Source: Polyangiales bacterium (GTDB lineage: Bacteria; Myxococcota_A; Polyangia; Polyangiales; Houyiibacteriaceae). Taken from it: a stretch of DNA of 64,000 bases. Under the pieces are notes generated by a model. It had not been told where the DNA came from and made no database searches. It worked only from the letters and a program-made list of their open reading frames with translations. Positions 18,250-58,836 of the stretch are shown one piece after another. The stretch spans positions 1-64,000 of the forward strand of contig JAXLYX010000019.1 in assembly GCA_046351215.1 (NCBI GenBank), read 5' to 3'. Both the position numbers and the translations under genes were made by a program. Numbering within the stretch: the first letter of the stretch is position 1; every line of letters begins with the position of its first letter.

Positions 18250-18253
<4 letters not shown>

Positions 18254-38636: not shown

Positions 38637-40742
38637 ATGCCCAGGGAAGCCCGTTCGAAGCAGGAGAAGGAGCTCGAGACCCTCGCCGAGGAGATCCGGT
38701 ACCACGAGGCCGCGTACCGTCGCGGCGAGCCCGAGATCCCGGACGGAGCCTTCGACGACCTCGTCGATCGCTACGAGCAGCTCGCCGAGTCGCTCGGGGT
38801 GCCACTCGCGCAGCGGGTCACGGCGAGGCCGGGCGCCGAGCACACGGAGGGCTTCGAGCAGGTCGCGCACCGCGTGCCGATGCTCTCGCTCGAGAAGCTC
38901 ACGCCGAGCAAGAAGGACGGGAGCGGGGGCTCCCTCGGGCTGCGCGAGCAGCTCCTGCAATGGGTGACGAGGCGGCGCAAGGACCTCGAGCTCGCGGCGC
39001 ACGGACGGCTCGAGCTCTGCGTCGAGCCGAAGATCGACGGGATCTCGATGTCCCTCCTCTACCAGGACGGGAAGCTCGTCCGCGCCGTCACGCGCGGCGA
39101 CGGAGAGAAGGGCGACGTGATCACGGCCCAGGTGCGGGCCGCCCGCGCCGTCCCCGAGCGTCTCGAGGGCACGAGCCGCGGCGAGGTCGAGATCCGTGGC
39201 GAGCTCTACTTCCCGCTCGACGCCTTCCACCGCCACAACGAGGCGCTCGCGGCACGCGGCGAGAAGACGCTCGTGAATCCCCGCAACGGCTGCGCGGGGC
39301 TCATGAAGCGTAAGGATCCCTCGGGGCTCGAGGGGATCGGCATCCGCTCGTTCCTCTACCAGGTCCCCTGGGCCCAGGGAGTCCATCTGCCCCCGACCCA
39401 GCACGCGACGCTCGAATGGCTCCGCGCGCACGGAGGCGACGTCTACCTCGACCTCGTGCACGTGACCGACGACGTGGACGCCGCGCTGGCGTTCTGCGAG
39501 GGCTTCGCCGAGAAGCGCGGCACCCTGCCCTACGACATCGACGGGATGGTCCTGAAGGTCGACGAGCTCAAGCACTACGGCGCGCTCGGCATGACCGGAC
39601 ACCATCCGCACTGGGGCGTCGCCTACAAGTTCCCGCCCGAGCGGAAGGCGACGAAGCTCGAGGACATCGTCGTGCAGGTCGGGAAGTCGGGGAAGCTCAC
39701 GCCGGTCGCCGTGCTCGAGCCGGTCTTCGTCGCCGGCACGACCGTGAGCCGCGCCTCGCTGCACAATTTCGTCGAGCTCGCGCGCAAGGACGTGCGCGTC
39801 GGCGATCGCGTCTTCGTCGAGAAGGCCGGCGAGATCATCCCCCAGGTCGTCGGCGTCGACCTCGAGGCGCGGCCCCACGGGACGCACGAATTCCATCCGC
39901 CCACGAAGTGCCCGACCTGCGGGACGCCCGTCGTCGCCGAGGACATCTTCGTCTACTGCCCGAACCCCGCCTGCCCCGATCAGGTGCGTGAGCGTCTCGT
40001 CCACTTCGCGAGCCGGCATGCGATGGACATCGACGGGCTCGGCGAGGCGGTCGTGAACCTCCTCGTCGACGAGCTCGGCGTGCGCTCGCCCGACGACATC
40101 TACCGGCTCGACGCGGCGAAGGTCGCGGAGCTCCCGCGCATGGGGAAGAAGAGCGCAGCCAACCTGATGCGCGCGATCGAGACGTCGAAGTCGAGGGGTC
40201 TCGCGCGCGTCCTCGTCGCCCTGGCCATCCGCCACGTCGGCGAGACGATGGCGGAGGAGCTCGCACGCTACTTCGGCTCGATGGTCGCGCTCCTCGAGAT
40301 GGCGCATCGATACGACTCCGGGGACGCCGAGGCGGTGCGTCTCTTCGCGCCCGAGAAGTCGGGAGAGCGCGGAGCCATCGAGGGGCTCGCGAAGAAGAGC
40401 GCCGACAGCATCTTCCGCGAGCTCTCGTCCCCGCAGGTCCGTCGCGTCATCGCGGGCCTCGCCGAGGCGGGCCTCGTGATGACGGCGGAGAAGCGCTCGG
40501 TGGTCGCCGTCGAAGGGGTGGCGGGCAAGGCCTTCGTCCTCACGGGCACGCTGCCCACGCTGAAGCGCGACGAGGCCGCCGCGAAGATCAAGCAAGCGGG
40601 CGGCAAGGTCTCCGGCTCGGTGTCGAAGAAGACGAGCTACGTCGTCGTCGGCGCCGAGGCCGGCAGCAAGCTCGCCGACGCCGAGGCGCTGGGAATCCCG
40701 ACGATCGACGAGGCCGAGCTCCTCCGCATGTTGGGGGAGTGA
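38637..40742 (+). CDS. ligA: NAD-dependent DNA ligase
   Basis: Adenylation 'EPKIDGISMSLLY' (KxDG), 'CPTCGTPVV...CPNPACP' Zn finger, HhH and C-terminal BRCT ('FVLTGTLPTLKRDEAAAKIKQAGGKVSGSVSKKTSYVVVG'). Confidence 0.9.
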   Translation: MPREARSKQEKELETLAEEIRYHEAAYRRGEPEIPDGAFDDLVDRYEQLAESLGVPLAQRVTARPGAEHTEGFEQVAHRVPMLSLEKLTPSKKDGSGGSLGLREQLLQWVTRRRKDLELAAHGRLELCVEPKIDGISMSLLYQDGKLVRAVTRGDGEKGDVITAQVRAARAVPERLEGTSRGEVEIRGELYFPLDAFHRHNEALAARGEKTLVNPRNGCAGLMKRKDPSGLEGIGIRSFLYQVPWAQGVHLPPTQHATLEWLRAHGGDVYLDLVHVTDDVDAALAFCEGFAEKRGTLPYDIDGMVLKVDELKHYGALGMTGHHPHWGVAYKFPPERKATKLEDIVVQVGKSGKLTPVAVLEPVFVAGTTVSRASLHNFVELARKDVRVGDRVFVEKAGEIIPQVVGVDLEARPHGTHEFHPPTKCPTCGTPVVAEDIFVYCPNPACPDQVRERLVHFASRHAMDIDGLGEAVVNLLVDELGVRSPDDIYRLDAAKVAELPRMGKKSAANLMRAIETSKSRGLARVLVALAIRHVGETMAEELARYFGSMVALLEMAHRYDSGDAEAVRLFAPEKSGERGAIEGLAKKSADSIFRELSSPQVRRVIAGLAEAGLVMTAEKRSVVAVEGVAGKAFVLTGTLPTLKRDEAAAKIKQAGGKVSGSVSKKTSYVVVGAEAGSKLADAEALGIPTIDEAELLRMLGE

Positions 40743-40849
40743 GGGGCGGGCGAGCGACGATCTTCGTCCGTGCCCGAGGAGGGGTGGCCTTGTCGGCCAG
40801 TCGGCCGACCCTAACGTGTAGGGAAACGTAGCATTCAGCCGGTTTTCCG

Positions 40850-41659
40850 ATGCGCCCCCTCCTCGCCGTCGTCCTCGCCTTCCTCTTCCTCGCCGTCCAC
40901 GCCTACGCCCAGGTCCCTCCCACGACCACGGATCCCCGGGCCGTGATGGAAGCCTCGTACCGTCTCGACGCGGGCGATCGCCTGGTCGCCCGCGTCCGGA
41001 TGACGATCACCGACGCGCAGGGCCGTGCCCGCGTTCGCGAGGTCGTGCTCCGCGCGATGGAGTTCCAGGGCGGTCGCAAGACGCTCATGCTCTTCGAGAG
41101 CCCGGCGGACGTCCGCAACACGGGGCTGCTCTCGATCGACCACGACGAAGGCTCCCGGCGCGACGAGCAATGGCTCTACCTCCCGAGCCTGCATCGCGCG
41201 ACGCGCATCGCGGCCTCGCGTCGCTCCGGCTCCTTCGTCGGCTCCGACTTCAGCTTCGCGGATCTCACGGCGGCCGATCCCGACGAGTACGAGCTGCGCA
41301 TGGTGCAGGCGGACGTCGCGGTGAACGGCGAGCCCTGCTGGCGCATCGAGGCCACGCCGCGCACGCCCGCCATCCGCGAGGAGACGGGCTACGAGAAGAT
41401 CGAGGTCTGGATCTCGAAGCGCAGCCTGCTGGCGATCCGGACGAAGGCGACGATGGGGCAGGGGAGGGCGAAGTACGTCGCGCTCGAGGACGTGCGCCGC
41501 GTCGACGGCATCTGGACCGCGCATCGGGTCGTCGCCCGCACCGTCCGCAACGACCAGCTCGAATCGCAGACGGTGCTCGAACGCCGCGACGTGCGGTACG
41601 GTGATGCGACCGTGACCGAAGCCGACTTCACCGTGCAGCGCCTCGAGCGGGGACTCTAG
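40850..41659 (+). CDS. Secreted LolA-like / outer-membrane-lipoprotein-sorting-family protein
   Basis: Signal peptide 'MRPLLAVVLAFLFLAVHAYA'. Size (269 aa) and pattern are typical of small LolA-fold proteins encoded beside MMPL/RND exporters. Family assignment by recall only. Confidence 0.5.
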   Translation: MRPLLAVVLAFLFLAVHAYAQVPPTTTDPRAVMEASYRLDAGDRLVARVRMTITDAQGRARVREVVLRAMEFQGGRKTLMLFESPADVRNTGLLSIDHDEGSRRDEQWLYLPSLHRATRIAASRRSGSFVGSDFSFADLTAADPDEYELRMVQADVAVNGEPCWRIEATPRTPAIREETGYEKIEVWISKRSLLAIRTKATMGQGRAKYVALEDVRRVDGIWTAHRVVARTVRNDQLESQTVLERRDVRYGDATVTEADFTVQRLERGL

Positions 41660-41664
41660 CGTCC

Positions 41665-43170
41665 ATGCGCCTCGGTGCGCTCCTCCCCCCGCTGCTCGTC
41701 GCGGCGTGCTTCGTGTCGTCCGCCGCTCGCGCGCAGACGGTGGAGAGCGCGAGCGATGCCGTCGGCTGGGGCGAGAGCGCGTCCGACGAGAGCGCGGGCG
41801 ATGCGGTCGGCTGGGGCGGGGGCGAGGCCACGACCGCCGAGTCGCCTTCCGAGCCCGTCGACGAGGCTTCCGCGGAGCGTGCGACCTCCGTCGGAGGCAC
41901 GGTCCGCGGCGACGGCGCGATGTGGACCGAGCGTCTCGGCGACAACGGCTTCGCGAAGGCGCGATTCTCCTACGATCTCTGGCTCCGCCATCGGCTGCGG
42001 CGAGGTCGGCTCGTCCTCGGGCTGCACGGCGAGCAGGACTTCGCCTACCTCTACGAGCCCGAGACCTACGATCAGCCGACGATCGACGTCTACGGGTCGG
42101 TGATCCGTGCGGGGGAGAGCTACCTCGCGCTCGAGACCGCGAACGCCGAGCTCGCGATCGGCACGCAGGTCGTCAATTGGGGCCACGGCGAGATGCTCTC
42201 GGTCGTCGATCTCGTGAATCCGCGCGACATGCGCGAGCCCGGCTTGATGGACCCGATGGACGTGCGCATCCCGGCCCTGATGAGCCGAGGCTCGTGGACG
42301 AACGGCCGCACGCGGCTCGAATTCCTCTGGCTCCACGAGGCCTACTTCCGCCTGCGCCCGCCGCCCTTCGGGACGTGGAGCCTCGTCCGCACGGCCGTGC
42401 TCACGGATCCGACCATCGCGATGACGCCGTTCCCTTCCTACGTCGACACCCGCGACGTCTACTGGCAGCAGAGCCCGCGACGCGTGTCGGTGGAGAGTCA
42501 GCAGGTGTTCGCGCGGGTGACACGGACGCTCGGACCGGTCGACCTCGGCTTCTACGCGGCCGACTACCTCGACCCGATCGGCACGGCGACGTTGCCCGAG
42601 GCGAGCGCCTGGGCGAACGCGGCCGTGTACGTGCCCCTCGACCATCTGCGCACGAACACGATCGGCGCCTCCGTCTCGTTCGTGCACCGGGATCTCTCGG
42701 GCTGGCTCGAGGTCGGCTGCGACATCCGGCGCCCGGTGAACACGGTGGATTTCGCCACGTTCGGCATCGGCACGGAGCGGCGCACGCTCTTCCGCTGGAC
42801 GCTCGGCGTCCGCTACCAGGGGCTCCGCGACACGACGATCGCCCTCGAATACGGGCAGGGAACGCAGCAGGGGCCCGGCGGGAGCGACTACCCGCTGCTC
42901 GTGCCGATCTTCCCCGCGACGCTCGCCGCGCGCGTCGAACGGAGCTTCGCACGGGAGCGATTGCGCGCGATGATCGTGGCCGCGCTCAACGGCGAGCACT
43001 TGGCGGGAGGTGGCTTCGCGCGCGCGCAGCTCGCCTACGTGCCGATCGACGGACTGACTCTCTCGATCGGCTACGCGATCTACTTCCCGACCGACACACC
43101 GTCCCTCGTCTGGGGCTTCACGACGAACGATCGCTTGATGGTCGGAGTCCGTTACGATTTCGCTCGTTGA
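41665..43170 (+). CDS. Secreted protein, probable outer-membrane beta-barrel (DUF1302-like?)
   Basis: Signal peptide 'MRLGALLPPLLVAACFVSSAARAQ'. Alternating beta-strand-like composition. The C-terminus 'GVRYDFAR' lacks a terminal Phe, so the barrel call is tentative. Confidence 0.45.
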   Translation: MRLGALLPPLLVAACFVSSAARAQTVESASDAVGWGESASDESAGDAVGWGGGEATTAESPSEPVDEASAERATSVGGTVRGDGAMWTERLGDNGFAKARFSYDLWLRHRLRRGRLVLGLHGEQDFAYLYEPETYDQPTIDVYGSVIRAGESYLALETANAELAIGTQVVNWGHGEMLSVVDLVNPRDMREPGLMDPMDVRIPALMSRGSWTNGRTRLEFLWLHEAYFRLRPPPFGTWSLVRTAVLTDPTIAMTPFPSYVDTRDVYWQQSPRRVSVESQQVFARVTRTLGPVDLGFYAADYLDPIGTATLPEASAWANAAVYVPLDHLRTNTIGASVSFVHRDLSGWLEVGCDIRRPVNTVDFATFGIGTERRTLFRWTLGVRYQGLRDTTIALEYGQGTQQGPGGSDYPLLVPIFPATLAARVERSFARERLRAMIVAALNGEHLAGGGFARAQLAYVPIDGLTLSIGYAIYFPTDTPSLVWGFTTNDRLMVGVRYDFAR

Positions 43171-43281
43171 CCTTGCTTTCCCGACTCCGGCCACTTGTCC
43201 GGATGTAGGTATGGCTCCTACGTGGTGGCACGAGCCGAGCCGACGCGGCTCCTCGCGTGGAACGCACGGGAAAGGAATTCC

Positions 43282-43569
43282 ATGACCGGCAGCCCCATCC
43301 ATCCGACGGACGACGGCCTCGCGGTCGAATGGCTGATGTCGCTCCTCGCTTCCACCGGGGACATCTACGTCCGTCCCATCGCCGGCGGTCCGACGATGGA
43401 GACGTCGCTGCGCGAGGAGCTCGGGCTCGACTCCATCGGGATGGTGGGCGTCTTCTACGCGGTGGTCGACGAGCTCGGTCTCGACGCCGACGAGCGCGTC
43501 GTGGCGGACTGGCGCACGGTCGCCGACGTGGTGCGCTTCGCACGGAGCGGAGCCGAAGGAGCGGCATGA
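43282..43569 (+). CDS. Acyl carrier protein
   Basis: 'LGLDSIGMVGV' phosphopantetheine-attachment (DSx) motif, 95 aa, strong Shine-Dalgarno GGGAAAGGAA. Stop overlaps the next gene (ATGA). Confidence 0.75.
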   Translation: MTGSPIHPTDDGLAVEWLMSLLASTGDIYVRPIAGGPTMETSLREELGLDSIGMVGVFYAVVDELGLDADERVVADWRTVADVVRFARSGAEGAA

Positions 43570-44981
43570 CGAACGCGCCTCCGTGGAAGACGGTCGCGCT
43601 CGATCCCGATGGACGTCGGCGCAGCGAGCCGATCCTCGCAGGGCTCCCCGAGGTGCCTCCGCTCTCGGTCGTCGTGCTCGCCGTCGCCGATCCCGCGTTC
43701 CTGGTGGCGGGCTACGAAGCGGTGCTCGCCCGGGAGGCGATCCCGCTGCTCCTGCACGGCACCACGCCGCTCGCGCTCGCGCGGCGGATGGTCGAGCGGG
43801 TCGGCGCCGCGGCCCTCCTGCATGCGCCCCTCGAGGGGGATCCCCACGTCGAGACCGCCCCGGCGGGAAAGGCCCGACTGCCGGAGCGCGGACATCTGCT
43901 CTGCACGAGCGGCACGACGAGCAAGTCGGGCGAGCCGAAGGTCTACTTCTTCCCCGAGGCCCGGGCCGAGGCGAACGCCCGCGCGCATCTCGCTTCCCTC
44001 GGCCTCGCCGACGCGCGCGGTCTCCGCATCCTCCTGCCGCTGCCCGTGAGCCACGCGTTCGGTCTCGTCTGCGGACATCTCGCGGCGCGGGCGACGGGCT
44101 CGACGCTCCTCGCGTTCACGAGCACGCCCGATCCCGCGACGTTGCTCGAGGTCGCGGCGCGCGAGCAAGCCCAGGTGCTCCACCTGACCCCGCCCATGGT
44201 GCGACTGCTCGCGCGGCGTCACGCGCGCAGAGCCGCCCCCGCGCTGCCCGAGCTCTCGCTCGTCGGCGTGGGCTCGGCGCCGAGCACGGCGGGCGAGATA
44301 CGAACGCTCCACCGGCTCTTCCCCGCGTCGCGCATCGTCGCGACGTACGGGCTCACGGAATGCGGACCCCGCGTGGCGACGTTCCAGGCCGGGACCGCCG
44401 AGCATCCCTCGATGCTCCTCGACGTCGACGACGCCGCGCAGGTGCCCCTCGGCGAGCCGCTCGCGGGCGTCCGGCTCGCGCTCGAGGACACAGGCTCCGA
44501 TGGCGTCGGAGAGCTCGTCGTGCACACGCCTTACGTCGCCACCGGACGCCTCGTCGACGGCGCGCTCGAGCCCATGCCCGCCGGTCCCTTCCGGACGCGA
44601 GACGCCGCGCGTCGCGAGGCCTACGGCGGGATCACCCTCCTCGGTCGCATGGACGGAACCATCGTCCGAGGCGGGACCAACGTGTATCCGACGAACGTCG
44701 AGCCGCTCGTCGAGGACGTGGCAGGCGTCACCGGCGTCTGCCTCGTCGGTCAGCGCTCCCCGACCTACGGAGAGGTCCCCGTGCTCGTCTGCGAGGTCGC
44801 GGCCGGGACGCACGAAGAAGAGCTCCGTCGGTCGATCGAGGCGCGGCTCGCCGACGAGCTCCCGCCGACCGATCGCCCCGTCGAGATCCGCTTCGTGCGC
44901 ACGCTGCCGCGCACCTCGCTCGGCAAGGTGATCCGCGCCGAGGTGAAGTCCAGGCTGGAGGCCCCGCATGGCTCTTGGTGA
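43566..44981 (+). CDS. AMP-dependent synthetase/ligase (adenylate-forming enzyme, short form)
   Basis: 'LLCTSGTTSKSGEPK' (AMP-binding motif I), 'ATYGLTECG', 'GELVVHTPYVATG', 'TRDAARREAYGGITLLGRMD' (motif with hinge Asp), 'SLGKV' terminal Lys. Confidence 0.75.
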   Translation: MTNAPPWKTVALDPDGRRRSEPILAGLPEVPPLSVVVLAVADPAFLVAGYEAVLAREAIPLLLHGTTPLALARRMVERVGAAALLHAPLEGDPHVETAPAGKARLPERGHLLCTSGTTSKSGEPKVYFFPEARAEANARAHLASLGLADARGLRILLPLPVSHAFGLVCGHLAARATGSTLLAFTSTPDPATLLEVAAREQAQVLHLTPPMVRLLARRHARRAAPALPELSLVGVGSAPSTAGEIRTLHRLFPASRIVATYGLTECGPRVATFQAGTAEHPSMLLDVDDAAQVPLGEPLAGVRLALEDTGSDGVGELVVHTPYVATGRLVDGALEPMPAGPFRTRDAARREAYGGITLLGRMDGTIVRGGTNVYPTNVEPLVEDVAGVTGVCLVGQRSPTYGEVPVLVCEVAAGTHEEELRRSIEARLADELPPTDRPVEIRFVRTLPRTSLGKVIRAEVKSRLEAPHGSW

Positions 44982-45999
44982 TCGGCACGCCTCGCTCGGC
45001 GGGAAGGGCGTCGCGATCCGCGGCATCGCCCATCGCCTCGGCTCGCGGAAGGTGACGAACCAGGACATCATCGACGAGCATCGCATCCGCCTGAAGGACG
45101 CGTGGGTGCGCGAGAACATCGGCATCTCCGAGCGCCATTGGGTCGGGCCGCACGAGTCGACCGCGACGATGGCGGCGGAGGTCTGCGCCGAGCTCGTCGG
45201 GAACGCGGGGCTCGCGCCGGCGGCAGTCGATCGCCTGATCGTGGCGACCGTCTCTCCCGAGGTGATCACGCCCTCGACCGCCTGCATCACGCAGTCGATC
45301 TTCGCGCCGGGCACGGCCTTCCCCTGCATGGATCTCGTCGCCGCCTGCGGAGGCTTCCTCTACGCGCTCGACGTCGGCAGGCGCTGCGTACAGACGGGCG
45401 ATCGGAACGTCCTCGTCGTCGCCTCGGAGGTGCGGAGCGCCTTCCTCGACAAGCAGGATCGGCGCACGGTGATGCTCTTCGGCGACGGCGCCGCGGGCGT
45501 GCTCCTCACGCCGGCCCGAGAGGGCGAGGTCGGCATCGTCGACACCCGCCTCTTCGCGGACGGTCGCTTCTGGGAGGCGATCTCGGTGCCGGCAGGCGGC
45601 GTGCGGCGGCCTGCGTCCGCGGAGACGGTCGCGGAGAAGGCCCACTCGATCACGATGAAGGACGGAGCCGCGATCTTCGAGCGAGCCGTCGCCGAGATGA
45701 CGGAGCTCGTGAAGGCGATGGTGCTCGGCCACGGCGCCACGCTCGACGAGGTCGACTTCTTCGTCTTCCACCAGGCCAGCGTGAACATCGTGAGGCGCGT
45801 GCTCGAGGCCCTCGGGATCCCCGAGGAGAAGACCTGGATCAACTTCCCCCGCGTCGGGAACTGCACCGCCGCTTCCGTGCCGATCGCGCTCTCCGAGGCC
45901 GTGCGCGCAGGTCGGGTGAAGCGGGGCGATCTCGTGTGCTCCGTCGCGACCGGAGGTGGGTTCACCGCCGGGACGGCGCTCTTCCGCTGGGAGGTCTGA
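44968..45999 (+). CDS. FabH-like 3-oxoacyl-ACP synthase III / OleA-like thiolase-fold condensing enzyme
   Basis: Cys-His-Asn triad contexts 'MDLVAACGGFLYAL', 'FVFHQASVNI', 'RVGNCTAASVPIAL'. 343 aa. Confidence 0.85.
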   Translation: MALGDRHASLGGKGVAIRGIAHRLGSRKVTNQDIIDEHRIRLKDAWVRENIGISERHWVGPHESTATMAAEVCAELVGNAGLAPAAVDRLIVATVSPEVITPSTACITQSIFAPGTAFPCMDLVAACGGFLYALDVGRRCVQTGDRNVLVVASEVRSAFLDKQDRRTVMLFGDGAAGVLLTPAREGEVGIVDTRLFADGRFWEAISVPAGGVRRPASAETVAEKAHSITMKDGAAIFERAVAEMTELVKAMVLGHGATLDEVDFFVFHQASVNIVRRVLEALGIPEEKTWINFPRVGNCTAASVPIALSEAVRAGRVKRGDLVCSVATGGGFTAGTALFRWEV

Positions 46000-46000
46000 C

Positions 46001-46828
46001 ATGAAGGGAACGCGACGCATCGAGGACTGTCGGGTGTGGGTGACGGGCGGGCGCCGCGGTCTCGGATACGCGTTCGCCGCGCATTTCGCCTCGCTCGGAG
46101 CCGAGGTCCACATCACCTCCCGCGAGCCGGGGAGCGCGGCCGCCGTCGAGGCCGTCGACTCCCTCGCCCACGCGGCGCGCGCCCACGCGGTCGGCCACGG
46201 CACGCAGGCGAAGCCCGTCACGGTCCACGGCCTCGACATGGCCGATCCCGCGAGCCTCGACGCGCTCTCGGACGCGATCCGCCACCATCCGCCGCACGTC
46301 CTCGTCCACGCGGCCCACGTCTTCGCCGACCACGTGCCGATCGTCGGTCGGAAGCCGGAGGACTTCGCCCGAGGTCTCTCGTCGAACGTCGTCTCCGCCT
46401 ACACGATCCTCCGCTCCGCGGCGCGCGCCATGGCGCGCGAGGGGCTCGGACGCATCCTCGTCGTGGGCAGCTTCGCGACGGTGAAGCCGGGCCTCGGACA
46501 GGTCGGCTACGTGACGGAGAAGGCGGCGCTCGAGGGCATGGTCCGCTCCTTCGCCGCGGAGTTCGCGGCGCGCGGCGTCCACGTGAACGTCGTGCATCCG
46601 GGCATCTGCGACACCGAGAACGTCCGCGACCGCGTGCCCGAGGTGATCCGCGACGCGTACGCCGCACGGACCAGCGCCGGGAGGCTGCTCTCGCCGAAGG
46701 AGGTCGTGCTCGCGTCGTTCTCGCTGTGCGATCCCCGGCACGCCGGGATCACGGGCCAGTCGCTCGCGATCACGGGCGGCGCCGATCTCGCGGGCCTCGT
46801 GGCCGGCACCTCGGGGGCGGAGACGTGA
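46001..46828 (+). CDS. Short-chain dehydrogenase/reductase (SDR), ketoreductase-like
   Basis: 'VWVTGGRRGLGYAFA' dinucleotide fold, 'YVTEKAALEGM' (YxxxK), 'VHPGICDT'. GGGAGG Shine-Dalgarno sequence, 1-nt gap after the KAS III stop. Confidence 0.8.
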   Translation: MKGTRRIEDCRVWVTGGRRGLGYAFAAHFASLGAEVHITSREPGSAAAVEAVDSLAHAARAHAVGHGTQAKPVTVHGLDMADPASLDALSDAIRHHPPHVLVHAAHVFADHVPIVGRKPEDFARGLSSNVVSAYTILRSAARAMAREGLGRILVVGSFATVKPGLGQVGYVTEKAALEGMVRSFAAEFAARGVHVNVVHPGICDTENVRDRVPEVIRDAYAARTSAGRLLSPKEVVLASFSLCDPRHAGITGQSLAITGGADLAGLVAGTSGAET

Positions 46829-47637
46829 GCACGCGCGGCGCGATCGTCCGCTCCATCGTGCTCTTGCCCCCGCTCGGCCACGACGCGGCGCTCTACGCGC
46901 CGCTCGCGCGCGCGATCGGCGATCGGCTCGAGGTCGTCGCGCTCGACTATCCCGGCTTCGGCGAGGAGCCACAGGGCTTCGACTACGAGGCTCCCGAGCT
47001 CCTCGAACGGCTCGCCGGGCACTTCGCCCAACGCATCGACTCGCTCGGGATCGAGCCGGTCTTCCTCGGCGGCGTCTCGCTCGGCGGCACGCTCTCCTTC
47101 CCCCTGGGCTCGAGGCTCGCGCGAGCGCCCGAGGGAAGGCTCCTCCTCGCGTCGGGAGGTCTTCCCGTGGCGATGGTCCGGAAGGACGCCGTGCGCACGG
47201 CGATGAACGAGCTCGGCGCCGTCGGCTTCGCGCGCAGGCACCTCGGGCTCGACCATCCGGACCTCGACGCGTCGAGCCTGCGGACCCACATCGGTCGCAT
47301 GACGGAAGACGTCGCGCGCTACTTCGAGCACTACTTCCACACGACGTGGGAGGGTCCGGCGTTCGAAGCCCGCGCGAACGCCTCCGTCGCGATGCTGAGA
47401 GCCGCCCTCGACGTCGACTTCCGCGAGGCGATGCGCGATCCACGCCCCCGTTCGGTGGTGATCTGGGGCGACCGCGATCGGATCTTCTCGCGATCGTTCG
47501 TCGACCGTCTCGTCGCGACGCTCGCACGCCCTTCGCTCCACGTCCTCGACGGCGTGGGGCACTACCCCCCGCTCGAGGCTCCCGACGAGGTCGCACGGAT
47601 CGTCGTCGAGGCCCTAGAAGGAAAGGCAGAAGCATGA
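46825..47637 (+). CDS. Alpha/beta-hydrolase fold protein (thioesterase/OleB-like?)
   Basis: 'FLGGVSLGG' nucleophile elbow (GxSxG), C-terminal 'LDGVGHYPPLE' His. GTGA overlap with the SDR gene. Confidence 0.7.
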   Translation: MSTRGAIVRSIVLLPPLGHDAALYAPLARAIGDRLEVVALDYPGFGEEPQGFDYEAPELLERLAGHFAQRIDSLGIEPVFLGGVSLGGTLSFPLGSRLARAPEGRLLLASGGLPVAMVRKDAVRTAMNELGAVGFARRHLGLDHPDLDASSLRTHIGRMTEDVARYFEHYFHTTWEGPAFEARANASVAMLRAALDVDFREAMRDPRPRSVVIWGDRDRIFSRSFVDRLVATLARPSLHVLDGVGHYPPLEAPDEVARIVVEALEGKAEA

Positions 47638-48326
47638 CCGACCACAGCAGCCATCCCGTGATCGCCCGGTTCGATCGCGTCCTCGAGGAGGCGGTCGGCC
47701 GGATCGAGGACAGTCCCTTCGTGAAGGACCTCGCCGCCGGCAAGCGCGTGCTCCCCCTCTACGAGGCCTATCTGCGCGAGGCGTACCATTTCGTGCGCCT
47801 GACCTCGTCGTTCACGCCGCTCGCGGCGCGGCGCATGGATCCGGAGCTCCTCGGCCTCCGCCAGTGGATCCTCCACCACTCGGCCCACGAGATGGGTCAC
47901 GAGCTGATGGCGCTCCAGGACCTCGAGCTCCTCGGCCAGTCGCGCGAGTCGGTGAAGGCGAGCCAGCCGCGCCCCGGCACCTGGCAGTGGGTCCACTTCT
48001 TCTACTACCAGGTCGTCGAGCGTCCGCCGTTCGCCGCCATGGGCGTCCTCTACTTCCTCGAGGGGATGGCCGCGAAGCTCGCGCCCATCGTCGTGCAGCA
48101 GGTGCTGCCCTCGCTCGAGGGCGAGAAGAAGCGGGCGACGCTCTTCGTGCGCGAGCACGGCGAGCTCGACCTCGAGCACACGGACGAGCAGAAGGACGTG
48201 CTCGTGAAGTACTGCACGAATCCGTTCGACCAGGACGTCGTCTGCGAGACGATCCTGCAGGCCAGCTACGCCAAGCGCGCGATGATCGATCACATCGCCG
48301 AGACCGTGGGGAACCGAGCGCCATGA
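47634..48326 (+). CDS. Heme-oxygenase-like fold protein (TenA/PqqC/CADD-type; candidate HO-like non-heme di-iron oxidase)
   Basis: 230 aa, all-helical composition with carboxylate/His pairs 'HHSAHEMGHE', 'YFLEGMAAK', 'VREHGELDLEHTDE'. ATGA overlap on both sides. Family call is pattern-based and tentative. Confidence 0.5.
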   Translation: MTDHSSHPVIARFDRVLEEAVGRIEDSPFVKDLAAGKRVLPLYEAYLREAYHFVRLTSSFTPLAARRMDPELLGLRQWILHHSAHEMGHELMALQDLELLGQSRESVKASQPRPGTWQWVHFFYYQVVERPPFAAMGVLYFLEGMAAKLAPIVVQQVLPSLEGEKKRATLFVREHGELDLEHTDEQKDVLVKYCTNPFDQDVVCETILQASYAKRAMIDHIAETVGNRAP

Positions 48327-48559
48327 CCGTCACCGAATCCGACCTCAAGAAGATGATCTCGGCGATCTGCCGCGTGCCCGAGGAACGCATCGCGCGCGAG
48401 ACGCGCTTCGTCGCCGACCTCCACATGGACTCGCTCGCGAGCCTCGATCTCCTCACGGAGCTCGAGGAGGTCCACGGCGTCGTGATCACGCAGGAGGAGG
48501 CACGCCACCTCCAGACCTTCGGTCACCTGCTCGATTTCCTCGAGAAGCGCGAAGACTGA
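48323..48559 (+). CDS. Acyl carrier protein (second copy)
   Basis: 'ADLHMDSLASLDLLTELEE' DSL motif, 78 aa. ATGA overlap with the upstream gene. Confidence 0.75.
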   Translation: MTVTESDLKKMISAICRVPEERIARETRFVADLHMDSLASLDLLTELEEVHGVVITQEEARHLQTFGHLLDFLEKRED

Positions 48560-48563
48560 GCCC

Positions 48564-51140
48564 GTGTCGTCCCTCGATCCCACGAGCGTGCTCGGACGCG
48601 CGGAGAGCTTCTTCCGCGCCTGGGCGCGCGTGGTCGTCCGCCATCCGAAGCTGGTGCTCTTCCTCTCCCTGCTCTTCACGGCGGGCATGGGGGTGCTCGC
48701 CGGGACGAGGCTGCGCGTCGACAACAGCACGGAGGGATTGCTCGGCTCCGATTCGCCGTCGATGGGCGTGCTCGACGCCCTCACGCGCGACTTCGGACCG
48801 GACAAATCCTTCGTGATCGTGGTCGAGGGCGACGTCTTCTCGAGACCCTTCCTCGAGAAGCTGAGCCGATTCCACCATGCGCTCGAGGGGCTCGAGCTGG
48901 AGCTCCCGACGCTCGGCCTCGACCGGCAGGCGCGGCGTGCGCTCGCGCGCGGCGAGGCCGTCGAGGCACGGGTCGTGCGGGAGCGCAGCGAGCCGGTCGC
49001 GGCCTCCGACGATCCCTTCGCCGGTATCGAGGGTTTCGACGCGCCCGCGGCCGGAGCGGCTCCCGCCGTGCCCCGTCCGACCCGCGGCGCCCACGTCGTC
49101 TTCGAGGACGTGACCTCGCTCGTGAACGTCCGCGACACCTCGTGGCAGGACGGTTCGCTCGCGATCGAGGAGCTGCTCGAGACCATCCCGTCCGACGGCG
49201 AGCTCCCCGCGTTCCGTCGTCGTGTGCTCGCAAACCCCTCCTTGGTCGGCGAGGTGGTCGATCGCGGGGGGAGGAACGCCGTCCTGCTCGTCCGCCTCCG
49301 TCCGATGGACGAGAAGGACTCCGCGAAGGTCCGGGACCGCCTCGGCGCTCTCGCGCGCTCGTACGAGGCGCCCGGGTTCCACGTCCGGATCGGCGGCATC
49401 GCCTCCCTCGAGGTCGCGCTGAACCGGATCATGGAGCGCGACATCTCGGTGGTCTTCTCGGCCGCGCTCGTCGTGATGCTCGGCCTCCTCTACTTCCTCT
49501 TCCGCAGCGTCTACGGCGTCGTCGGTCCCATCCTCGTCGTGCTCCTCTCGGTGGTCGCGACGCTCGGAGCGATGGCCCTCTTCGACGCGCCGATGACGGG
49601 CGTGACGAGCGTGCTCTCGTCCTTCCTCCTCATCATCGGCCTCGCGGATGCCGTCCACGTGCAGACGGCCTATCGCGACCTGCGGCGGAAGGGGGCCGGC
49701 AACGAGGACGCGATCGTCGAGGCGATCGCCGAGGCCGCCTGGCCGATCGCCTTCACGGCGATCACCGACGTCGCCGGTCTCCTCTCCTTCCGCACCTCGA
49801 GCCTCCGCTCGGTGCAGGACATGGGGACCTACGCCTCCTTCGGCATCACGGTGGCGTTCGTCCACTCGCTCTGCTTCCTGCCGGCCTTCCTCACCTTCCA
49901 TCGGAAGGCGACGCTCGGCGAGGAGCGGTCCGCCGCGAAGAAGGACGCTCTCGATCGCTTCCTCGGGCGCTGCGAGGCGGCGTCGCGGCCGGTGTACCGC
50001 GACGGTGTGGTCTCGCGTCGGCGCAGGAACCTCGTGCTCTTCGCGACCGCGGGGCTCACCGTCCTCGCGCTCTTCGGCTCGGCGAGGATCCGCGCCCACC
50101 ACGATCCCCTGAGCTGGCTCCCTCGCTCGAACCCCGACCGGCAGATCACCGAATACCTCGACCATCACCTCGGAGGCTCGGGCACGGTCTCGATCGTGGT
50201 GACGGCCGCGCCGGGGCATACCGTGCGCGAGCGCGACCTCTTGCTCCGCCTCGAGCGTCTCGAGCGTCACGTGCTCGCGTATCGGGCCGCGGACGATCAC
50301 CGTCCGATCGCGACGCACGTCTCGAGCGTCCTCGACCTCGTCCGCGAGAGCTGGATGGCGGTGCACGACGACGAGGCCAGGTACCGTGTCCTCCCCGATA
50401 CGCAGCAGGGCGTGAGCGACACCTTCACGCTCATCGAGGGCGCGGGTCCGCACGAGCTCTCGAAGATCGTGACGGCCGATTTCGAGAAGACGGTGATGAC
50501 GGTCCGCGTCCGTTGGCGCGAGGCGGGGGCGTACATCCCCTTCACGAGGCATGTCGAAGAGGGCGTCCGCCGCTACGTCGGGAATGCCGCACGCATCGAG
50601 CTCACGGGTACGGTGCCCGCGAACTACGAGGTCGTCTCCTCGCTGAACTCGGACCTCCTCTCGAGCTTCGGGACGGCCCTCCTCAGCATCGCGATCACGA
50701 TGATCCTCGTCGTCTGGGACGTGAAGCTCGGGCTGCTCTCGCTCGTGCCGAACCTCCTCCCGATCCTGATGATGTCCGGCCTGATGGGAGCGCTCGGGAT
50801 CCCACTCGACCTCATGAGCCTGCTCGTCGGCTCGATCGCGATGGGCCTCGTCGTGGACGACACGATCCACGTGCTCCACTACTACACGATGAAGAAGGAC
50901 GAGCTCGGTCCCGAGCGGGCGGTCCGCTTCCTCTTCGAGTCGACCGGGAGGGCCCTCGTCGGCACGAGCGTGACGCTCTCCGCGGGCTTCCTGCTCTACG
51001 TGCTCGCGACGATGAGCAACGTGCAGCGCTTCGGCGGGCTGCTCGGCGCGACGATCCTCCTCGCGCTCTTCGGCGACCTCCTGATCACGCCGGCGCTCCT
51101 GCGCACGATCGCGGAGGGCGAGCCGCTGCCGGAGGACTAG
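48564..51140 (+). CDS. MMPL/RND-superfamily lipid exporter (12 TM, two periplasmic loops)
   Basis: Two blocks of about 6 TM helices each ('VVFSAALVVMLGLLYFLF...LIIGLADAVHV' and 'LLSIAITMILVVWDV...VDDTIHVLHYY'), about 860 aa. GTG start 5 bp after the ACP stop. Confidence 0.8.
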   Translation: MSSLDPTSVLGRAESFFRAWARVVVRHPKLVLFLSLLFTAGMGVLAGTRLRVDNSTEGLLGSDSPSMGVLDALTRDFGPDKSFVIVVEGDVFSRPFLEKLSRFHHALEGLELELPTLGLDRQARRALARGEAVEARVVRERSEPVAASDDPFAGIEGFDAPAAGAAPAVPRPTRGAHVVFEDVTSLVNVRDTSWQDGSLAIEELLETIPSDGELPAFRRRVLANPSLVGEVVDRGGRNAVLLVRLRPMDEKDSAKVRDRLGALARSYEAPGFHVRIGGIASLEVALNRIMERDISVVFSAALVVMLGLLYFLFRSVYGVVGPILVVLLSVVATLGAMALFDAPMTGVTSVLSSFLLIIGLADAVHVQTAYRDLRRKGAGNEDAIVEAIAEAAWPIAFTAITDVAGLLSFRTSSLRSVQDMGTYASFGITVAFVHSLCFLPAFLTFHRKATLGEERSAAKKDALDRFLGRCEAASRPVYRDGVVSRRRRNLVLFATAGLTVLALFGSARIRAHHDPLSWLPRSNPDRQITEYLDHHLGGSGTVSIVVTAAPGHTVRERDLLLRLERLERHVLAYRAADDHRPIATHVSSVLDLVRESWMAVHDDEARYRVLPDTQQGVSDTFTLIEGAGPHELSKIVTADFEKTVMTVRVRWREAGAYIPFTRHVEEGVRRYVGNAARIELTGTVPANYEVVSSLNSDLLSSFGTALLSIAITMILVVWDVKLGLLSLVPNLLPILMMSGLMGALGIPLDLMSLLVGSIAMGLVVDDTIHVLHYYTMKKDELGPERAVRFLFESTGRALVGTSVTLSAGFLLYVLATMSNVQRFGGLLGATILLALFGDLLITPALLRTIAEGEPLPED

Positions 51141-51144
51141 CCGA

Positions 51145-52584
51145 TCAGAACTCGAGCGAGCTTCCGAGGTAGAGGCTCACGGCGTACGTGGAGCTCTTCG
51201 TGGTCTGGCCGGGCAGGGCGCAGAAGTTCACGCCGACGGCGGCGAGGCAGCGCGTGTCGTAGCCGACGGCGAGGCTGCGGACCGAGCCGGATCCGCCCGC
51301 GAAGCGGAGGGAGAGCGTCGTGCCGAACACGAGCGGCTTCTCGCGAGGCGCGGGCGCTCCCTCGGCGGGCGGCTCGACCGGGTCCGGGCTCCCTCGGAGG
51401 TAGGTGCGGGTCTGGAGGCCCACGGTGAAGCCGTAGAGGCTCACCGGGCTGTTGAGCCCTCCGTTGGGTTGATCGGTGCGATTGGTGAACACGCCGCCGC
51501 CGATCGAGAGGCCGCGGCTCACCTCGTGGATCATTCCCGCACGTACGTTCCACGTGGGCGAGAGGTCGACGAGGAGCTCCTTGTTCTCGAGACCCATGCG
51601 GTACTCGAATTCCACGTCGATCCAGCCGTGGTCGTAGTACCACGCGAAGCCGCCCGTGATCTGGAGCGGCTGGAGCAGACCGAAGCCCCCGTTGGGACGC
51701 ACGGGAGAGACCGACGAGGTCGAGACTGCCGCGCCGGGATCGCCGGGATAGAGGACATTCGGCGGCGCGACGAACGACACGGTCGTCGCGATGCGTTGCT
51801 CGGGCGTCTCGGCGATCACCATGGCGGGGCCCCGCAGCATCAGACCGAAGCGGAGCTGCGGGAGGATCTCCCACTGCAGGCCGACTCCCGGCTGGATGCC
51901 CCAGCGGATGGGGGAATCCTTGATCTGCTCCGTGACGCCCGCCTGGTACCCGCCCGTGACGCTCATCGTCACGACCTGGTTGTTCACGTAGCTCTCGTAG
52001 ATCCCGTAGAGGTGGAATCCGAGGCGGAGCTTCGGAGTGACGGACCATCCGAGGGTCGGCCCGACGTGGTAGCGCACCCGGTTCTGATCCGAGTCGTAGT
52101 ACGAGAGGATGTCGAGCTGGCCGTAGTAGGGATCCTCGACCTGCGCCGAGAAATCCGCCGACAGCCAGCCGTAGCCGTATTGGGTCACGAAGACGCCGAG
52201 CCCGAGCGTCAAGCCCGGCTTCAGCGCCGTCGCCATCACGACGCTCGGCGAGAGGATCAGTACCTGCGTCGACGAGAGGTCCTGGGCCTCGAGCTGCTGG
52301 CCGTCGATCTGGAACGCGAAGCCATCGTCGACGTGGTCGAAGCGGATCCCGTAGAGCGACGCGCTCACGTTGAACTTCGTGCGTCGGTTCAGGGCGAGGC
52401 CCGCCGGGTTGTACCAGGCCGAGCCGGGATCGCTCGACGTCGCCACGACGGCTCCGGCGGCGACCGCGCCCTCGTCGCCCTGCGCGAAGGAATAGCCGTC
52501 GGCGCGCGCGATGGCGGGAGCCGTCACGCACGACGCCGCCGCGAGGGCGATGGCCGCCCACCTCCCGATCCGCTTTCCGTGCAT
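51145..52584 (-). CDS. FadL/OmpP1-like outer-membrane hydrophobic-compound transport protein
   Basis: Signal peptide 'RWAAIALAAASCVTAPAIARA', beta-rich sequence, C-terminal '...LYLGSSLEF' ending in Phe. Convergent with the MMPL gene (4-bp gap). Confidence 0.6.
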   Translation of the reverse strand: MHGKRIGRWAAIALAAASCVTAPAIARADGYSFAQGDEGAVAAGAVVATSSDPGSAWYNPAGLALNRRTKFNVSASLYGIRFDHVDDGFAFQIDGQQLEAQDLSSTQVLILSPSVVMATALKPGLTLGLGVFVTQYGYGWLSADFSAQVEDPYYGQLDILSYYDSDQNRVRYHVGPTLGWSVTPKLRLGFHLYGIYESYVNNQVVTMSVTGGYQAGVTEQIKDSPIRWGIQPGVGLQWEILPQLRFGLMLRGPAMVIAETPEQRIATTVSFVAPPNVLYPGDPGAAVSTSSVSPVRPNGGFGLLQPLQITGGFAWYYDHGWIDVEFEYRMGLENKELLVDLSPTWNVRAGMIHEVSRGLSIGGGVFTNRTDQPNGGLNSPVSLYGFTVGLQTRTYLRGSPDPVEPPAEGAPAPREKPLVFGTTLSLRFAGGSGSVRSLAVGYDTRCLAAVGVNFCALPGQTTKSSTYAVSLYLGSSLEF

Positions 52585-52705
52585 CGCTCGCCTCCCGTCG
52601 GAGGAACGGTATCCGAGTCCGCGTCGGGTGTCGTGGGCGGAGAAGGGCGCGACCGTCGCCCGGCGGACCCAAGAGGGTTCGAGCCGCCGGCGGACTCCTG
52701 AGCCC

Positions 52706-58830: not shown

Positions 58831-58836
58831 GGAGCC

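Follow-up and report, generated by a model that had tools for sequence, protein, structure and literature searches.

What do the lipid-type genes in a 64,000-nucleotide stretch of the genome of a Polyangiales bacterium (the whole stretch is called the window here) make, and where does their product go? A preliminary description of the window had singled out eleven genes at 40850-52584 and had read them as an OleABCD-like head-to-head olefin or beta-lactone enzyme set, to which two acyl carrier proteins (ACP1 and ACP2), a heme-oxygenase-like protein and an export apparatus had been added. Those eleven genes make up roughly the first half of a cluster that spans at least 27 kb and ~25 genes. The enzyme families encoded, their intact catalytic motifs, the translational coupling of the genes and the conservation of the gene set across three phyla are established at the level of sequence. 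What is proposed from them is that the cluster uses two private carrier proteins to build a fatty-acid-derived amphiphile destined for the envelope, the most likely product being an N-acyl (3-hydroxyacyl or acyloxyacyl) amino-acid lipid, a reading to which a probability of about 0.4 is given. It is favoured because a GH3-family synthetase related to the ornithine-lipid enzyme OlsH is coupled to an acyltransferase and a methyltransferase, and because the series of short ligase or fatty acyl-AMP ligase (FAAL), ACP, ketoacyl-ACP synthase III (KAS III), short-chain dehydrogenase/reductase (SDR) and alpha/beta-hydrolase could supply a free 3-hydroxy acid.

Extent and conservation of the gene cluster

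Since the window has a G+C content of 71%, raw lists of open reading frames (ORFs) are uninformative, and genes were placed by third-position GC frame profiling plus translation. The same gene lengths and spacing were obtained from independent calls on metagenome contigs that encode an identical heme-oxygenase-like dimetal oxidase (HDO) protein; the gene coordinates and the head-to-tail ATGA/GTGA coupling given in the preliminary description were recovered in both ways. ATGA overlaps lie at 43566, 47634 and 48323 and a GTGA overlap at 46825; the ligase and KAS III genes overlap by 14 nt, and the other junctions within 43282-51140 are gaps of 1 and 4 nt. The protein families first named also held, all of those flagged passing the Pfam gathering score except the ‘FadL-like’ protein.

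The upstream edge of the cluster is the DNA ligase gene ligA (38637-40742), and the genes further upstream are housekeeping or regulatory. The limits originally set at 40850-52584 are too narrow, as the cluster continues from 52706 to the end of the window and beyond. An activated-sludge contig (L025; loci and contigs used for comparison carry an L number) is identical to the window over 51141-64000 (0 mismatches) and shows that the hexapeptide-repeat acyltransferase, GH3 and PEMT/ICMT-family methyltransferase genes form one coupled operon with genes for a PaaK/DVU_1553/FlxY-like ligase and a FAAL, the last two being found only beyond the window end. The GH3 start (61856) overlaps the stop of the hexapeptide transferase gene, and the start of the methyltransferase gene, complete on L025 at 212 aa, overlaps the GH3 stop. 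The 257-aa and 188-aa proteins encoded after the FAAL on L025 belong to no recognisable family; beyond them lie a glyoxalase gene and then a TetR gene. Contigs with an HDO or hexapeptide transferase identical to that of the window recur across metagenome assemblies (L001-L006 and L025-L027), including the activated-sludge assembly ERZ937806, whose contig k127_244746 covers the continuation of the cluster to about 4.9 kb beyond the end of the window.

A pattern-based scan that took a single genome for each of 185,579 species recovered the arrangement in 13, a count that is a lower bound. The 13 carriers are two Sandaracinaceae metagenome-assembled genomes (MAGs), nine members of Bacteriovoracaceae, Halobacteriovoraceae or Bdellovibrionota, one ‘Pseudomonadota’ MAG and one Ketobacter. 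Bacteriovorax sp. Seq25_V and DB6_IX and Ketobacter are culturable carriers. When all window proteins were compared by BLASTP with the ORFs of 16 loci, the gene-neighbourhood check suggested in the preliminary description yielded a syntenic core in the 16: KAS III, SDR, hydrolase, (hexapeptide transferase), HDO and ACP2, together with the dehydrogenase and the carboxyltransferase, are kept in Sandaracinaceae, Bacteriovoracaceae/Halobacteriovoraceae, the Pseudomonadota MAG and Ketobacter. Because the gene order recurs in other phyla, the arrangement is, on this comparison of sequences, far beyond chance. FAAL, GH3, MMPL and LolA-like genes also lie nearby in conserved loci; the first three neighbourhoods, for example, held the core plus the hexapeptide transferase, the long dehydrogenase, the 2-hydroxyacid dehydrogenase, the carboxyltransferase with or without the biotin carboxylase, GH3, MMPL, LolA-like and FAAL genes. 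The cluster looks as if it has been shared horizontally between two unrelated lineages, each of which includes predatory bacteria.

The commonest layout has FAAL, a 520-aa ligase, the short ligase, KAS III, SDR, hydrolase, hexapeptide transferase, HDO and ACP2 on one strand, followed on the opposite strand by the dehydrogenase, the 2-hydroxyacid dehydrogenase, ACP1 and the carboxyltransferase, with or without the biotin carboxylase. KAS III, SDR, hydrolase and hexapeptide transferase genes adjoin in one order in 12 loci, an orthologue of the transferase standing between hydrolase and HDO in 12 non-myxobacterial loci, and ACP2 is directly downstream of HDO in 15 of the 16. The long acyl-CoA dehydrogenase is likewise present in 15 of 16 loci, the carboxyltransferase in every locus that extends to its position and the biotin carboxylase in eight of 16, with the biotin carboxyl carrier protein (BCCP) also in L012 and L013. 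GH3 was found in eight loci and is adjacent to a PEMT/ICMT gene in the window, L012 and L015; in the window and in L012, where this region is visible, the hexapeptide transferase adjoins GH3.

ACP1 and the 2-hydroxyacid dehydrogenase are either both present or both absent in every locus. An ACP1 orthologue lies between the carboxyltransferase and the 2-hydroxyacid dehydrogenase in most non-myxobacterial loci, and in the Sandaracinaceae-like versions (window, L012 and L013) ACP1 adjoins the short ligase. That ligase usually accompanies the pair, the exceptions being L017, which has none, L010, which has a PaaK-like ligase in its place, and L019, which ends before the region. This co-occurrence suggests that ACP1, the 2-hydroxyacid dehydrogenase and the short ligase form one functional sub-module.

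The transport genes are kept more loosely. MMPL genes occur in seven of the 16 other loci at 22-45% identity, and LolA-like homologues in L008, L017, L022 and L023 at 24-30%; identities of this order suggest repeated recruitment of like transporters rather than strict orthology. The DUF1302-like, FadL-like, 498-aa SDR-like and 143-aa genes, which had no homologue in the other loci compared, are by this comparison lineage-specific additions. Conversely, when the extra ligase, MFS (major facilitator superfamily), PALP and YceI genes found in other loci were searched against the window by tblastn, no counterparts appeared.

The HDO itself has few homologues, at 42-67% identity, the nearest among GTDB species-representative genomes being that of a Sandaracinaceae MAG (66%). 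In an exhaustive profile search of 1.84 billion cluster representatives only seven matches reached 1e-30 or better, and one strong full-length representative (340 bits) was followed by full-length matches of just 163 and 140 bits. Given these few matches and the steep drop in score, the HDO is, on profile evidence, a small, discrete orthologous group. The genes of the cluster are listed in Table 1.

Table 1. Genes of the cluster in the window and their continuation on contig L025, with the match behind each assignment
Feature	Position	Strand	Match or remark
LolA-like protein	40850-41659	+	PF17131 LolA_like 1e-43
DUF1302-like secreted protein	41665-43170	+	Pfam DUF1302 29.4 bits, cut-off 23.2
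ACP1	43282-43569	+	PP-binding 25.2 bits, cut-off 20.8
Short ligase, 471 aa	43566-44981	+	AMP-binding and AMP-binding_C
KAS III	44968-45999	+	Both KAS III Pfam domains; NF006829
SDR	46001-46828	+	adh_short; adh_short_C2 1.6e-33
Alpha/beta-hydrolase	46825-47637	+	Abhydrolase_6 2e-20; Thioesterase 4e-7
HDO	47634-48326	+	PF14518 Haem_oxygenas_2, 54.2 bits, cut-off 28.9, 2e-14
ACP2	48323-48559	+	PP-binding 35 bits
RND/MMPL transporter	48564-51140	+	Pfam MMPL 95.7 bits, 3e-27
FadL/TodX-like secreted protein, 479 aa	51145-52584	-	Toluene_X 26.5 bits, below cut-off 29.7
BCCP	52706-53170	-	Biotin_lipoyl 1.2e-16; NCBIfam BCCP models
Biotin carboxylase	53146-54612	-	Biotin_carb_N, CPSase_L_D2, Biotin_carb_C
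Long acyl-CoA or acyl-ACP dehydrogenase, 597 aa	54609-56402	-	Three ACAD domains
D-isomer-specific 2-hydroxyacid dehydrogenase	56383-57360	-	2-Hacid_dh_C 1.8e-30
PccB/AccD5-type carboxyltransferase, 463 aa	57439-58830	+	Carboxyl_trans 9e-90
SDR-like protein, 498 aa, N-terminal extension	58837-60333	-	Split adh_short matches; cluster membership uncertain
143-aa protein	60361-60792	-	No Pfam/NCBIfam match; cluster membership uncertain
Hexapeptide-repeat (left-handed beta-helix) acyltransferase	61059-61859	+	Hexapep 6e-16
GH3-family acyl-acid amido synthetase, 513 aa	61856-63397	+	GH3 N, M and C domains
PEMT/ICMT-family membrane methyltransferase	63390-64000, past window end	+	PEMT 5e-11; ICMT 8e-9
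PaaK-like ligase (531 aa), FAAL (644 aa), 257-aa and 188-aa proteins	L025 12975-17879; window-equivalent ~64033-68937

Predicted carrier-protein chemistry and the dimetal oxidase

As broad classes, a thiolase fold, an adenylate-forming enzyme, a reductase and an alpha/beta-hydrolase are all present, which is what had led to the proposal of an OleA/OleC/OleD/OleB set. At the level of subfamilies, all four proteins fail that assignment. Against solved structures (phmmer, PDB), the KAS III scored 170-190 bits with FabH, 164 with PqsD, 145 with BioZ and 104 with CorB, but only 57-61 with OleA (the Xanthomonas chains 3ROW, 3S21, 4KU5 and others). With E. coli FabH it shares 37% identity, and the Cys-His-Asn contexts reported earlier are intact, Cys112, His244 and Asn274 (E. 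coli numbering) being invariant in the alignment. Among NCBIfam models it passes the FabH subfamily NF006829 (285.5 bits; cut-off 249) and stays below TIGR00747 (257.7; cut-off 292.1). By these matches the condensing enzyme is a FabH-type KAS III.

The partners of the KAS III depart from the Ole enzymes as well. The OleC models NF045785 and NF045786 (cut-offs 850-900) are absent from the 25 best NCBIfam matches of the short ligase, all of which are at or below 131 bits. The reductase is, as first described, a classical SDR and not a 3beta-HSD-type OleD: in Pfam it matches adh_short and adh_short_C2 only, with no 3Beta_HSD match, and with 32% identity to E. coli FabG and the motifs TGGRRGLG (TGxxxGxG) and YVTEK (YxxxK) it is probably a FabG-like 3-oxoacyl-ACP reductase. 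The hydrolase retains the GxSxG motif (GVSLG) and is not dehalogenase-like (haloalkane dehalogenase model 36.7 bits; cut-off 466), its best matches being PcaD, PlaF and type II thioesterases. In the PDB it matches PlaF, AidH, HsaD/BphD and RifR, that is, phospholipase, lactonase, C-C hydrolases and type II thioesterases. It may act as a thioesterase, an acyltransferase or an eliminase. In addition, two ACPs and a carboxylase point to decarboxylative carrier-protein chemistry, and Halobacteriovorax marinus has, as a separate protein, a genuine OleA that is 38% identical to its Xanthomonas counterpart (PMC7064751); real Ole thiolases are thus a separate protein family in that group. An additional ligase of 520-530 aa is encoded in the Bacteriovoracaceae-type loci (for example, L007 3906-5498 and L008 5380-6942). 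Its best match is PRK09274 (367-386 bits; cut-off 478), and OleC is its second-best NCBIfam match (175-182 bits), which speaks for an Ole-like enzyme but is far below the OleC cut-offs of 850-900; moreover, nothing corresponding to it is encoded in the window, in the part of L025 read downstream or in the Sandaracinaceae-like versions. Taken together, an OleABCD-like olefin or beta-lactone pathway is very improbable.

If the enzymes are FabH- and FabG-like, they could simply be the housekeeping genes of fatty-acid initiation. The KAS III passes a FabH subfamily model, and E. coli FabG and AcpP share 32-33% identity with the SDR and with ACP2 (33% for ACP2). Nevertheless, this explanation is the one given least credence, and so small a chance that it can be set aside in what follows. 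The preliminary description had itself named a canonical FabH in a widespread set of ordinary initiation genes as the finding that would speak against its own reading; what was found is a rare arrangement, present in the few species genomes given above, whose KAS III falls short of TIGR00747, whose surroundings show no plsX/fabD/fabF context, unlike the E. coli order plsX-fabH-fabD-fabG-acpP-fabF, and whose genes are embedded with those for HDO, GH3, FAAL and carboxylase.

The carrier proteins carry their serines in the motifs DSI (ACP1) and DSL (ACP2). The short ligase has all core motifs of the adenylate-forming (ANL) superfamily (TSGTT, YGLTE, TRD and PRTSLGK). Among the NCBIfam models that match it over nearly its full length, that of the 2-oxoglutaryl-ACP ligase AmcH scores best (116.8 bits, 8e-34; cut-off 370), and the Bacteriovorax orthologue of the short ligase matches AmcH in part (65.8 bits); solved structures gave no informative relative. 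The short ligase probably loads ACP1. The FAAL on L025 scores 476 bits with the FAAL subfamily model and 308 with the FadD32 model (cut-off 975), and the PaaK-like ligase 35.7 bits with the FlxY model (cut-off 520). With GH3 these make four adenylate-forming enzymes, so several acids would be activated, and one amide bond would be made by way of adenylation. No FabD-, FabF-, FabZ- or FabI-type gene was found among the Pfam and NCBIfam families of the window cluster and L025, and no KAS I/II or dehydratase gene from 40850 to the end of L025. Without a malonyl transferase, an elongating ketosynthase, a dehydratase and an enoyl reductase, the private ACP chemistry would end, once the chain has been elongated a single time, with a 3-oxo or 3-hydroxy acyl thioester.

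ACP2 is coupled by an ATGA overlap to the HDO. The six residues E86, H89, E143, H175, D179 and H182, which we take to correspond to the UndA metal ligands (three His and three Glu/Asp), are invariant in the HDO group. The AlphaFold2 model (pLDDT 93.6) has TM scores of 0.80-0.83 to 3DDE, CADD and UndA (UndA 0.81); a fold search with the model confirms the fold and gives no specificity. Profile matches to the PDB were MboA (8e-6), CADD (7e-5) and UndA (4e-4), BesC not being among the matches listed, and the NCBIfam CADD model gave 19.6 bits against a cut-off of 200. Judged from sequence and model, the product of 47634-48326 is a member of the HDO family. With the HDOs UndA, CADD, BesC and MboA and the uncharacterised 3DDE family it shares the fold (TM 0.70-0.83) and the pattern of three His and three carboxylates, but the characterised members are only marginally similar to it in sequence. 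A further difference is that the cluster group adjoins a carrier protein gene, while 3DDE, its nearest structure, stands in a different context; no member that depends on a carrier protein is mentioned in a 2026 HDO review (PMC13108848).

Comparison with 3DDE, the nearest solved HDO, gave no lead to function; the neighbours of that family are genes for a DUF3419/BtaA-like protein, an aminotransferase and a short ligase. Loci of the 3DDE type (Shewanella, Pseudomonas and others; L028 8835-17462 and L029 9352-14425) share a conserved context of their own: a ~200-aa protein, the HDO, DUF3419 (BtaA-like), a gene that is either unknown or for an aminotransferase, and a short AMP ligase. In Shewanella this group of genes adjoins an RND (resistance-nodulation-division) pump and a non-ribosomal peptide synthetase. 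This looks like another undescribed pathway.

The UndA fold with the same six-ligand pattern also raises the possibility that the cluster makes a secreted lipophilic metabolite. The 3-hydroxyl would be acetylated by the hexapeptide transferase and eliminated or released by the hydrolase, or a 2-hydroxyacyl-ACP1 would be condensed to a butenolide or tetronate ring, with oxidation or decarboxylation by the HDO to follow. Acetylation-elimination is known from Agg4/Agg5 of tetronate biosynthesis, and sulfonation-decarboxylation, as a comparison, from the CurM/Ols terminal-olefin synthases. Such a product is consistent with the fixed order of KAS III, SDR, hydrolase and hexapeptide transferase genes in 12 loci, with a FAAL, an ACP, one condensation and a ketoreductase as in the front end of cyanobacterial olefin synthase, and with the ability of the short ligase, ACP1 and 2-hydroxyacid dehydrogenase to supply a 2-hydroxyacyl-ACP; an EntS-like MFS efflux gene is present in L008, L022 and L023. 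On the other hand, the acyltransferase belongs to a family other than that of Agg4, specialised KAS III enzymes in the PDB set are further from the cluster KAS III than true FabH is, the sequence match of HDO to UndA is only ~4e-4, the cluster has no sulfotransferase or FkbH-type enzyme, and no role would fall to GH3 and the PEMT/ICMT methyltransferase. A secreted metabolite is accordingly held to be a doubtful alternative, though one worth keeping in view.

Carboxylase, GH3 synthetase and proposed export

The second half of the cluster adds a carboxylase, two dehydrogenases, the hexapeptide transferase, GH3, the methyltransferase and the FAAL, and with them the chemistry to be expected is a different one. 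The biotin carboxylase matches AccC-type models at 330-367 bits, below their cut-offs. The carboxyltransferase scored 255-272 bits with the beta subunit of PCC, 229-243 with mycobacterial AccD4/AccD5-type chains, 140 with GCC, 110-126 with MCC and 53 with the glutaconyl-CoA decarboxylase GcdA; on these scores it is clearly of the PccB/AccD5 type, predicted to carboxylate the alpha-carbon. The candidate identities of an MCC/GCC-type (Liu/Atu) enzyme and of a glutaconyl-CoA decarboxylase were ruled out by the PccB-type score. The core of the acyl-CoA dehydrogenase is closest to the short-chain enzymes Bcd/AcrC (117 bits) and carries a C-terminal extension of ~200 aa. Weak matches only were found for the 2-hydroxyacid dehydrogenase (D-2-hydroxyacid and glyoxylate reductases) and for the hexapeptide transferase (LpxD, PglD/NeuD and O-acetyltransferases).

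An alpha-carboxylating enzyme next to one condensing enzyme, one ketoreductase and an MMPL/RND exporter recalls the synthesis of mycolates. The carboxylase would then supply an alkylmalonyl unit, the KAS III would join it to the FAAL-loaded acyl-ACP, and the SDR would yield a 2-alkyl-3-hydroxy acid that is conjugated and exported in the MMPL manner. This branched lipid is favoured by the FAAL in the same operon system, by the scores of the carboxyltransferase with the AccD4/AccD5-type chains and by the joint conservation of carboxylase and condensing enzyme in all complete loci. Several of the matches tell otherwise: the condensing enzyme is a small FabH homologue and not Pks13-like, with no support for acceptance of alkylmalonyl; the top scores of the carboxyltransferase are with ordinary propionyl-CoA carboxylases and do not suggest a specificity for long chains; the FAAL falls far short of the FadD32 cut-off; and the pump is HAE3-like, not MmpL3-like (TIGR00833 137 bits; cut-off 875). 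Dedicated acetyl-CoA carboxylases that boost the malonyl supply are, besides, common in polyketide clusters. A mycolate-like lipid is for these reasons rated as rather unlikely.

GH3 is the enzyme that would form the amide of the N-acyl amino-acid lipid. The protein matches the Pfam families GH3 (67.7 bits), GH3_M (36.5) and GH3_C (34.3), all above the 23.6 cut-off, and its only NCBIfam match is OlsH (187 bits, 5e-55; cut-off 620), which the Bacteriovoracaceae orthologue matches at 110.5 bits. In Singulisphaera acidiphila, OlsH forms N-acyl ornithine from a free 3-hydroxy fatty acid and ATP, and the genes of a methyltransferase and of an alpha/beta-hydrolase O-acyltransferase accompany olsH (PMC12493201). 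A 2026 review of aminolipids finds OlsH homologues in many orders and lists none for Myxococcota or Bdellovibrionota. In L010 (980-3766) a 928-aa fusion joins a ThrC/cysteate-synthase-like pyridoxal-phosphate domain to GH3, which suggests local synthesis of the amino acid that GH3 joins and points to an amino-acid acceptor. L010 also has a gene for a YceI-like lipid-binding protein inserted before HDO.

On the reading favoured here, the FAAL encoded just past the window end would load a long-chain acid onto a carrier protein, and the short ligase would load a small acid, probably a 2-hydroxy or 2-oxo acid from the 2-hydroxyacid dehydrogenase, onto ACP1. The PccB-type carboxylase would supply a malonyl-type extender unit, possibly substituted, for a single decarboxylative Claisen condensation by the FabH-type KAS III, after which the SDR would reduce the 3-oxo group to a 3-hydroxyl. 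While bound to ACP2, the intermediate would be tailored oxidatively by the HDO, unsaturation may come from the acyl-CoA dehydrogenase homologue, and the hydrolase would release or transfer the acyl chain. GH3 would then adenylate the free acid and join it to an amino acid, as OlsH does, the hexapeptide acyltransferase would add a second acyl group, and the PEMT/ICMT enzyme would methylate the head group. The substrates that come to mind for ACP1 (2-oxoglutarate, glycolate or lactate) and for the extender (hydroxymalonyl or alkylmalonyl) are speculation.

For the finished lipid, a route outward may be encoded as well: the RND pump would take it from the inner membrane, the LolA-like protein would carry it across the periplasm, and the DUF1302-like or FadL-like barrels would receive it. 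The LolA-like protein has a signal peptide and one N-terminal hydrophobic segment; the DUF1302-like protein has a signal peptide and is probably, by its family, an outer-membrane beta-barrel. The RND protein shows a 12-transmembrane pattern with two large loops. It scored 240.3 bits with TIGR00921 (HAE3; cut-off 351.9) and, for HpnN, 125 and with the equivalog model 62 (cut-off 1100); from these values and the TIGR00833 score it is best taken as a member of the superfamily, probably HAE3/MMPL-like. The HAE3 family includes the hopanoid exporter HpnN. The LolA-like and MMPL genes are transcribed in the same direction as the biosynthetic genes, and such proteins have elsewhere been linked to the trafficking of very hydrophobic molecules (PMC6304351). 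In this respect the earlier picture of a lipid-type, carrier-protein-based operon joined to MMPL/RND, LolA-like and outer-membrane proteins stands. That of a convergent FadL-like porin stands in part: the protein is secreted, with a signal peptide and a C-terminal Phe, whereas Toluene_X covers only residues 39-248 at 26.5 bits (cut-off 29.7) and no NCBIfam model matches, leaving the FadL/TodX label for the 51145-52584 protein weak.

FadL-family proteins import hydrophobic compounds, and the whole cluster could be read in the opposite sense, with FadL-like, LolA-like and RND proteins taking up a hydrophobic substrate, the ligases activating it and the dehydrogenase, carboxylase and SDR degrading it, as in Atu/Liu clusters, where ligase, dehydrogenase, carboxylase and SDR also combine. 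An MMPL-LolA fusion is induced in Thalassolituus on a C28 alkane, and the core is present in Ketobacter, an alkane degrader. The two dedicated ACPs, the FabH-type enzyme, the FAAL, GH3 and the acyltransferases are, by contrast, hallmarks of biosynthesis; the carboxyltransferase is PccB-type and not of the gamma-carboxylating MCC/GCC kind, the cluster has no hydratase or thiolase, and conservation of the core does not extend to the FadL-like and DUF1302-like genes. Uptake and catabolism are thus judged improbable.

Known systems and significance

The gene combination was not recognised as a described cluster at the outset, and no description of it was found in full-text literature searches, in the 2026 HDO review or in a 2025 review of FAALs. 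Partial likenesses to several known systems were found.

One of them is OlsH/OlsI(/OlsG), in which a GH3 synthetase is likewise encoded with a methyltransferase and an acyl-transferring enzyme, and in which a free (3-hydroxy) fatty acid, ATP and an amino acid give an N-acyl amino acid that is then O-acylated. The cluster methyltransferase differs from OlsG in being of the PEMT/ICMT family, and the OlsHI operon is without the private ACPs, KAS III, ketoreductase, HDO, carboxylase, acyl-CoA dehydrogenase, FAAL and export apparatus, all of which the cluster has. The Ole pathways share broad activity classes and lipophilic envelope products with it, but all four proteins are of other subfamilies and the cluster is ACP-dependent with a carboxylase.

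To put a lipid into the outer membrane, the aryl-polyene, flexirubin and xanthomonadin clusters use, like the cluster here, two ACPs, a ketoreductase, a PaaK/FlxY-like ligase, acyltransferases and LolA-like plus MMPL/RND proteins. The present cluster lacks their ketosynthase/chain-length factor pair and dehydratase, so that no polyene would be formed; its KAS III reaches only 45.6 bits with the DarB model (cut-off 550), and HDO, GH3, carboxylase and FAAL are extra. With the mycolate system (FadD32, AccD4, Pks13, CmrA and MmpL3) it has in common a FAAL, a carboxylase beta subunit, one condensation, one ketoreduction and an MMPL exporter; it has a FabH homologue in place of Pks13, its FAAL, carboxyltransferase and RND protein are only superfamily relatives, and its host is Gram-negative, with LolA-like and beta-barrel partners. 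The cispentacin proteins AmcH/AmcB are alike in that a short stand-alone ligase stands beside a small divergent ACP, while the AmcF/AmcG-type ketosynthases are missing here and the AmcH match is below cut-off. All parts of the cluster belong to known enzyme families; what may be new in kind is an HDO that apparently works with a carrier protein.

A number of observations weigh against the N-acyl amino-acid lipid. GH3 (187 bits against 620) and the hydrolase (18.7 bits, 1e-3, with OlsI against 385) are not an OlsHI orthologue pair, and GH3 was not seen within 10 kb in the Bacteriovoracaceae loci L007, L014, L016 and L020 and may not be universal. The roles proposed above for the acyl-CoA dehydrogenase, for the 2-hydroxyacid dehydrogenase with ACP1, for the carboxylase and for the HDO are guesses, and a branched (mycolate-like) or more elaborate product would be just as compatible with the carboxylase and the several ligases. 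On the export side, the transport proteins of different phyla resemble one another at family level only (22-30% identity), the barrel candidates (DUF1302-like and FadL-like) are lineage-specific, and FadL-type proteins usually import rather than export.

The RND and FadL-like genes are convergent (51140/51145), their stops lying 4 nt apart with no space for a terminator hairpin between the operons, and the FadL-like gene is the last of a minus-strand operon; a promoter and terminator scan of 40600-53300 gave nothing beyond expectation. Upstream of ligA lie genes for an SRPBCC/Polyketide_cyc2 protein (33318-34397, minus strand), a squalene epoxidase (34694-36106, minus strand) and a squalene/phytoene synthase-like protein (36509-37417, plus strand). 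These may be sterol or triterpenoid genes; no cyclase was seen in the window, and a glutathione S-transferase gene and ligA separate them from the cluster. The transferase (37568-38572) has a C-terminal extension weakly similar to ABM/antibiotic-biosynthesis monooxygenase domains. Two sigma-54-dependent activators (6810-8195 and 16865-18253; one with an FHA domain) and, at 28480-31742, a DUF4388 and a GGDEF response regulator reflect a regulatory density typical for myxobacteria.

In its boldest form, the proposal would be that of a new outer-membrane lipid class common to the predatory Bacteriovoracaceae and the Sandaracinaceae, made by a single FabH-type condensation with a hydroxy- or alkyl-malonyl extender (from a ligase-loaded 2-hydroxy or fatty acid via the PccB-type carboxylase) and tailored in carrier-bound form by the first known carrier-protein-dependent HDO; taken as a whole this is an unlikely combination. 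If the product is an envelope lipid, it would be a new entry among the few non-phospholipid outer-membrane lipids of Gram-negative bacteria, accompanied by a complete candidate path out of the cytoplasm and into the outer membrane. One branch of the bacterial GH3 proteins, of which OlsH is the only characterised example, would also gain a function, and the conserved HDO-ACP pair would extend HDOs to carrier-protein-bound substrates. Finally, the occurrence of the cluster in two lineages that include predators makes a role at the cell surface a testable idea.

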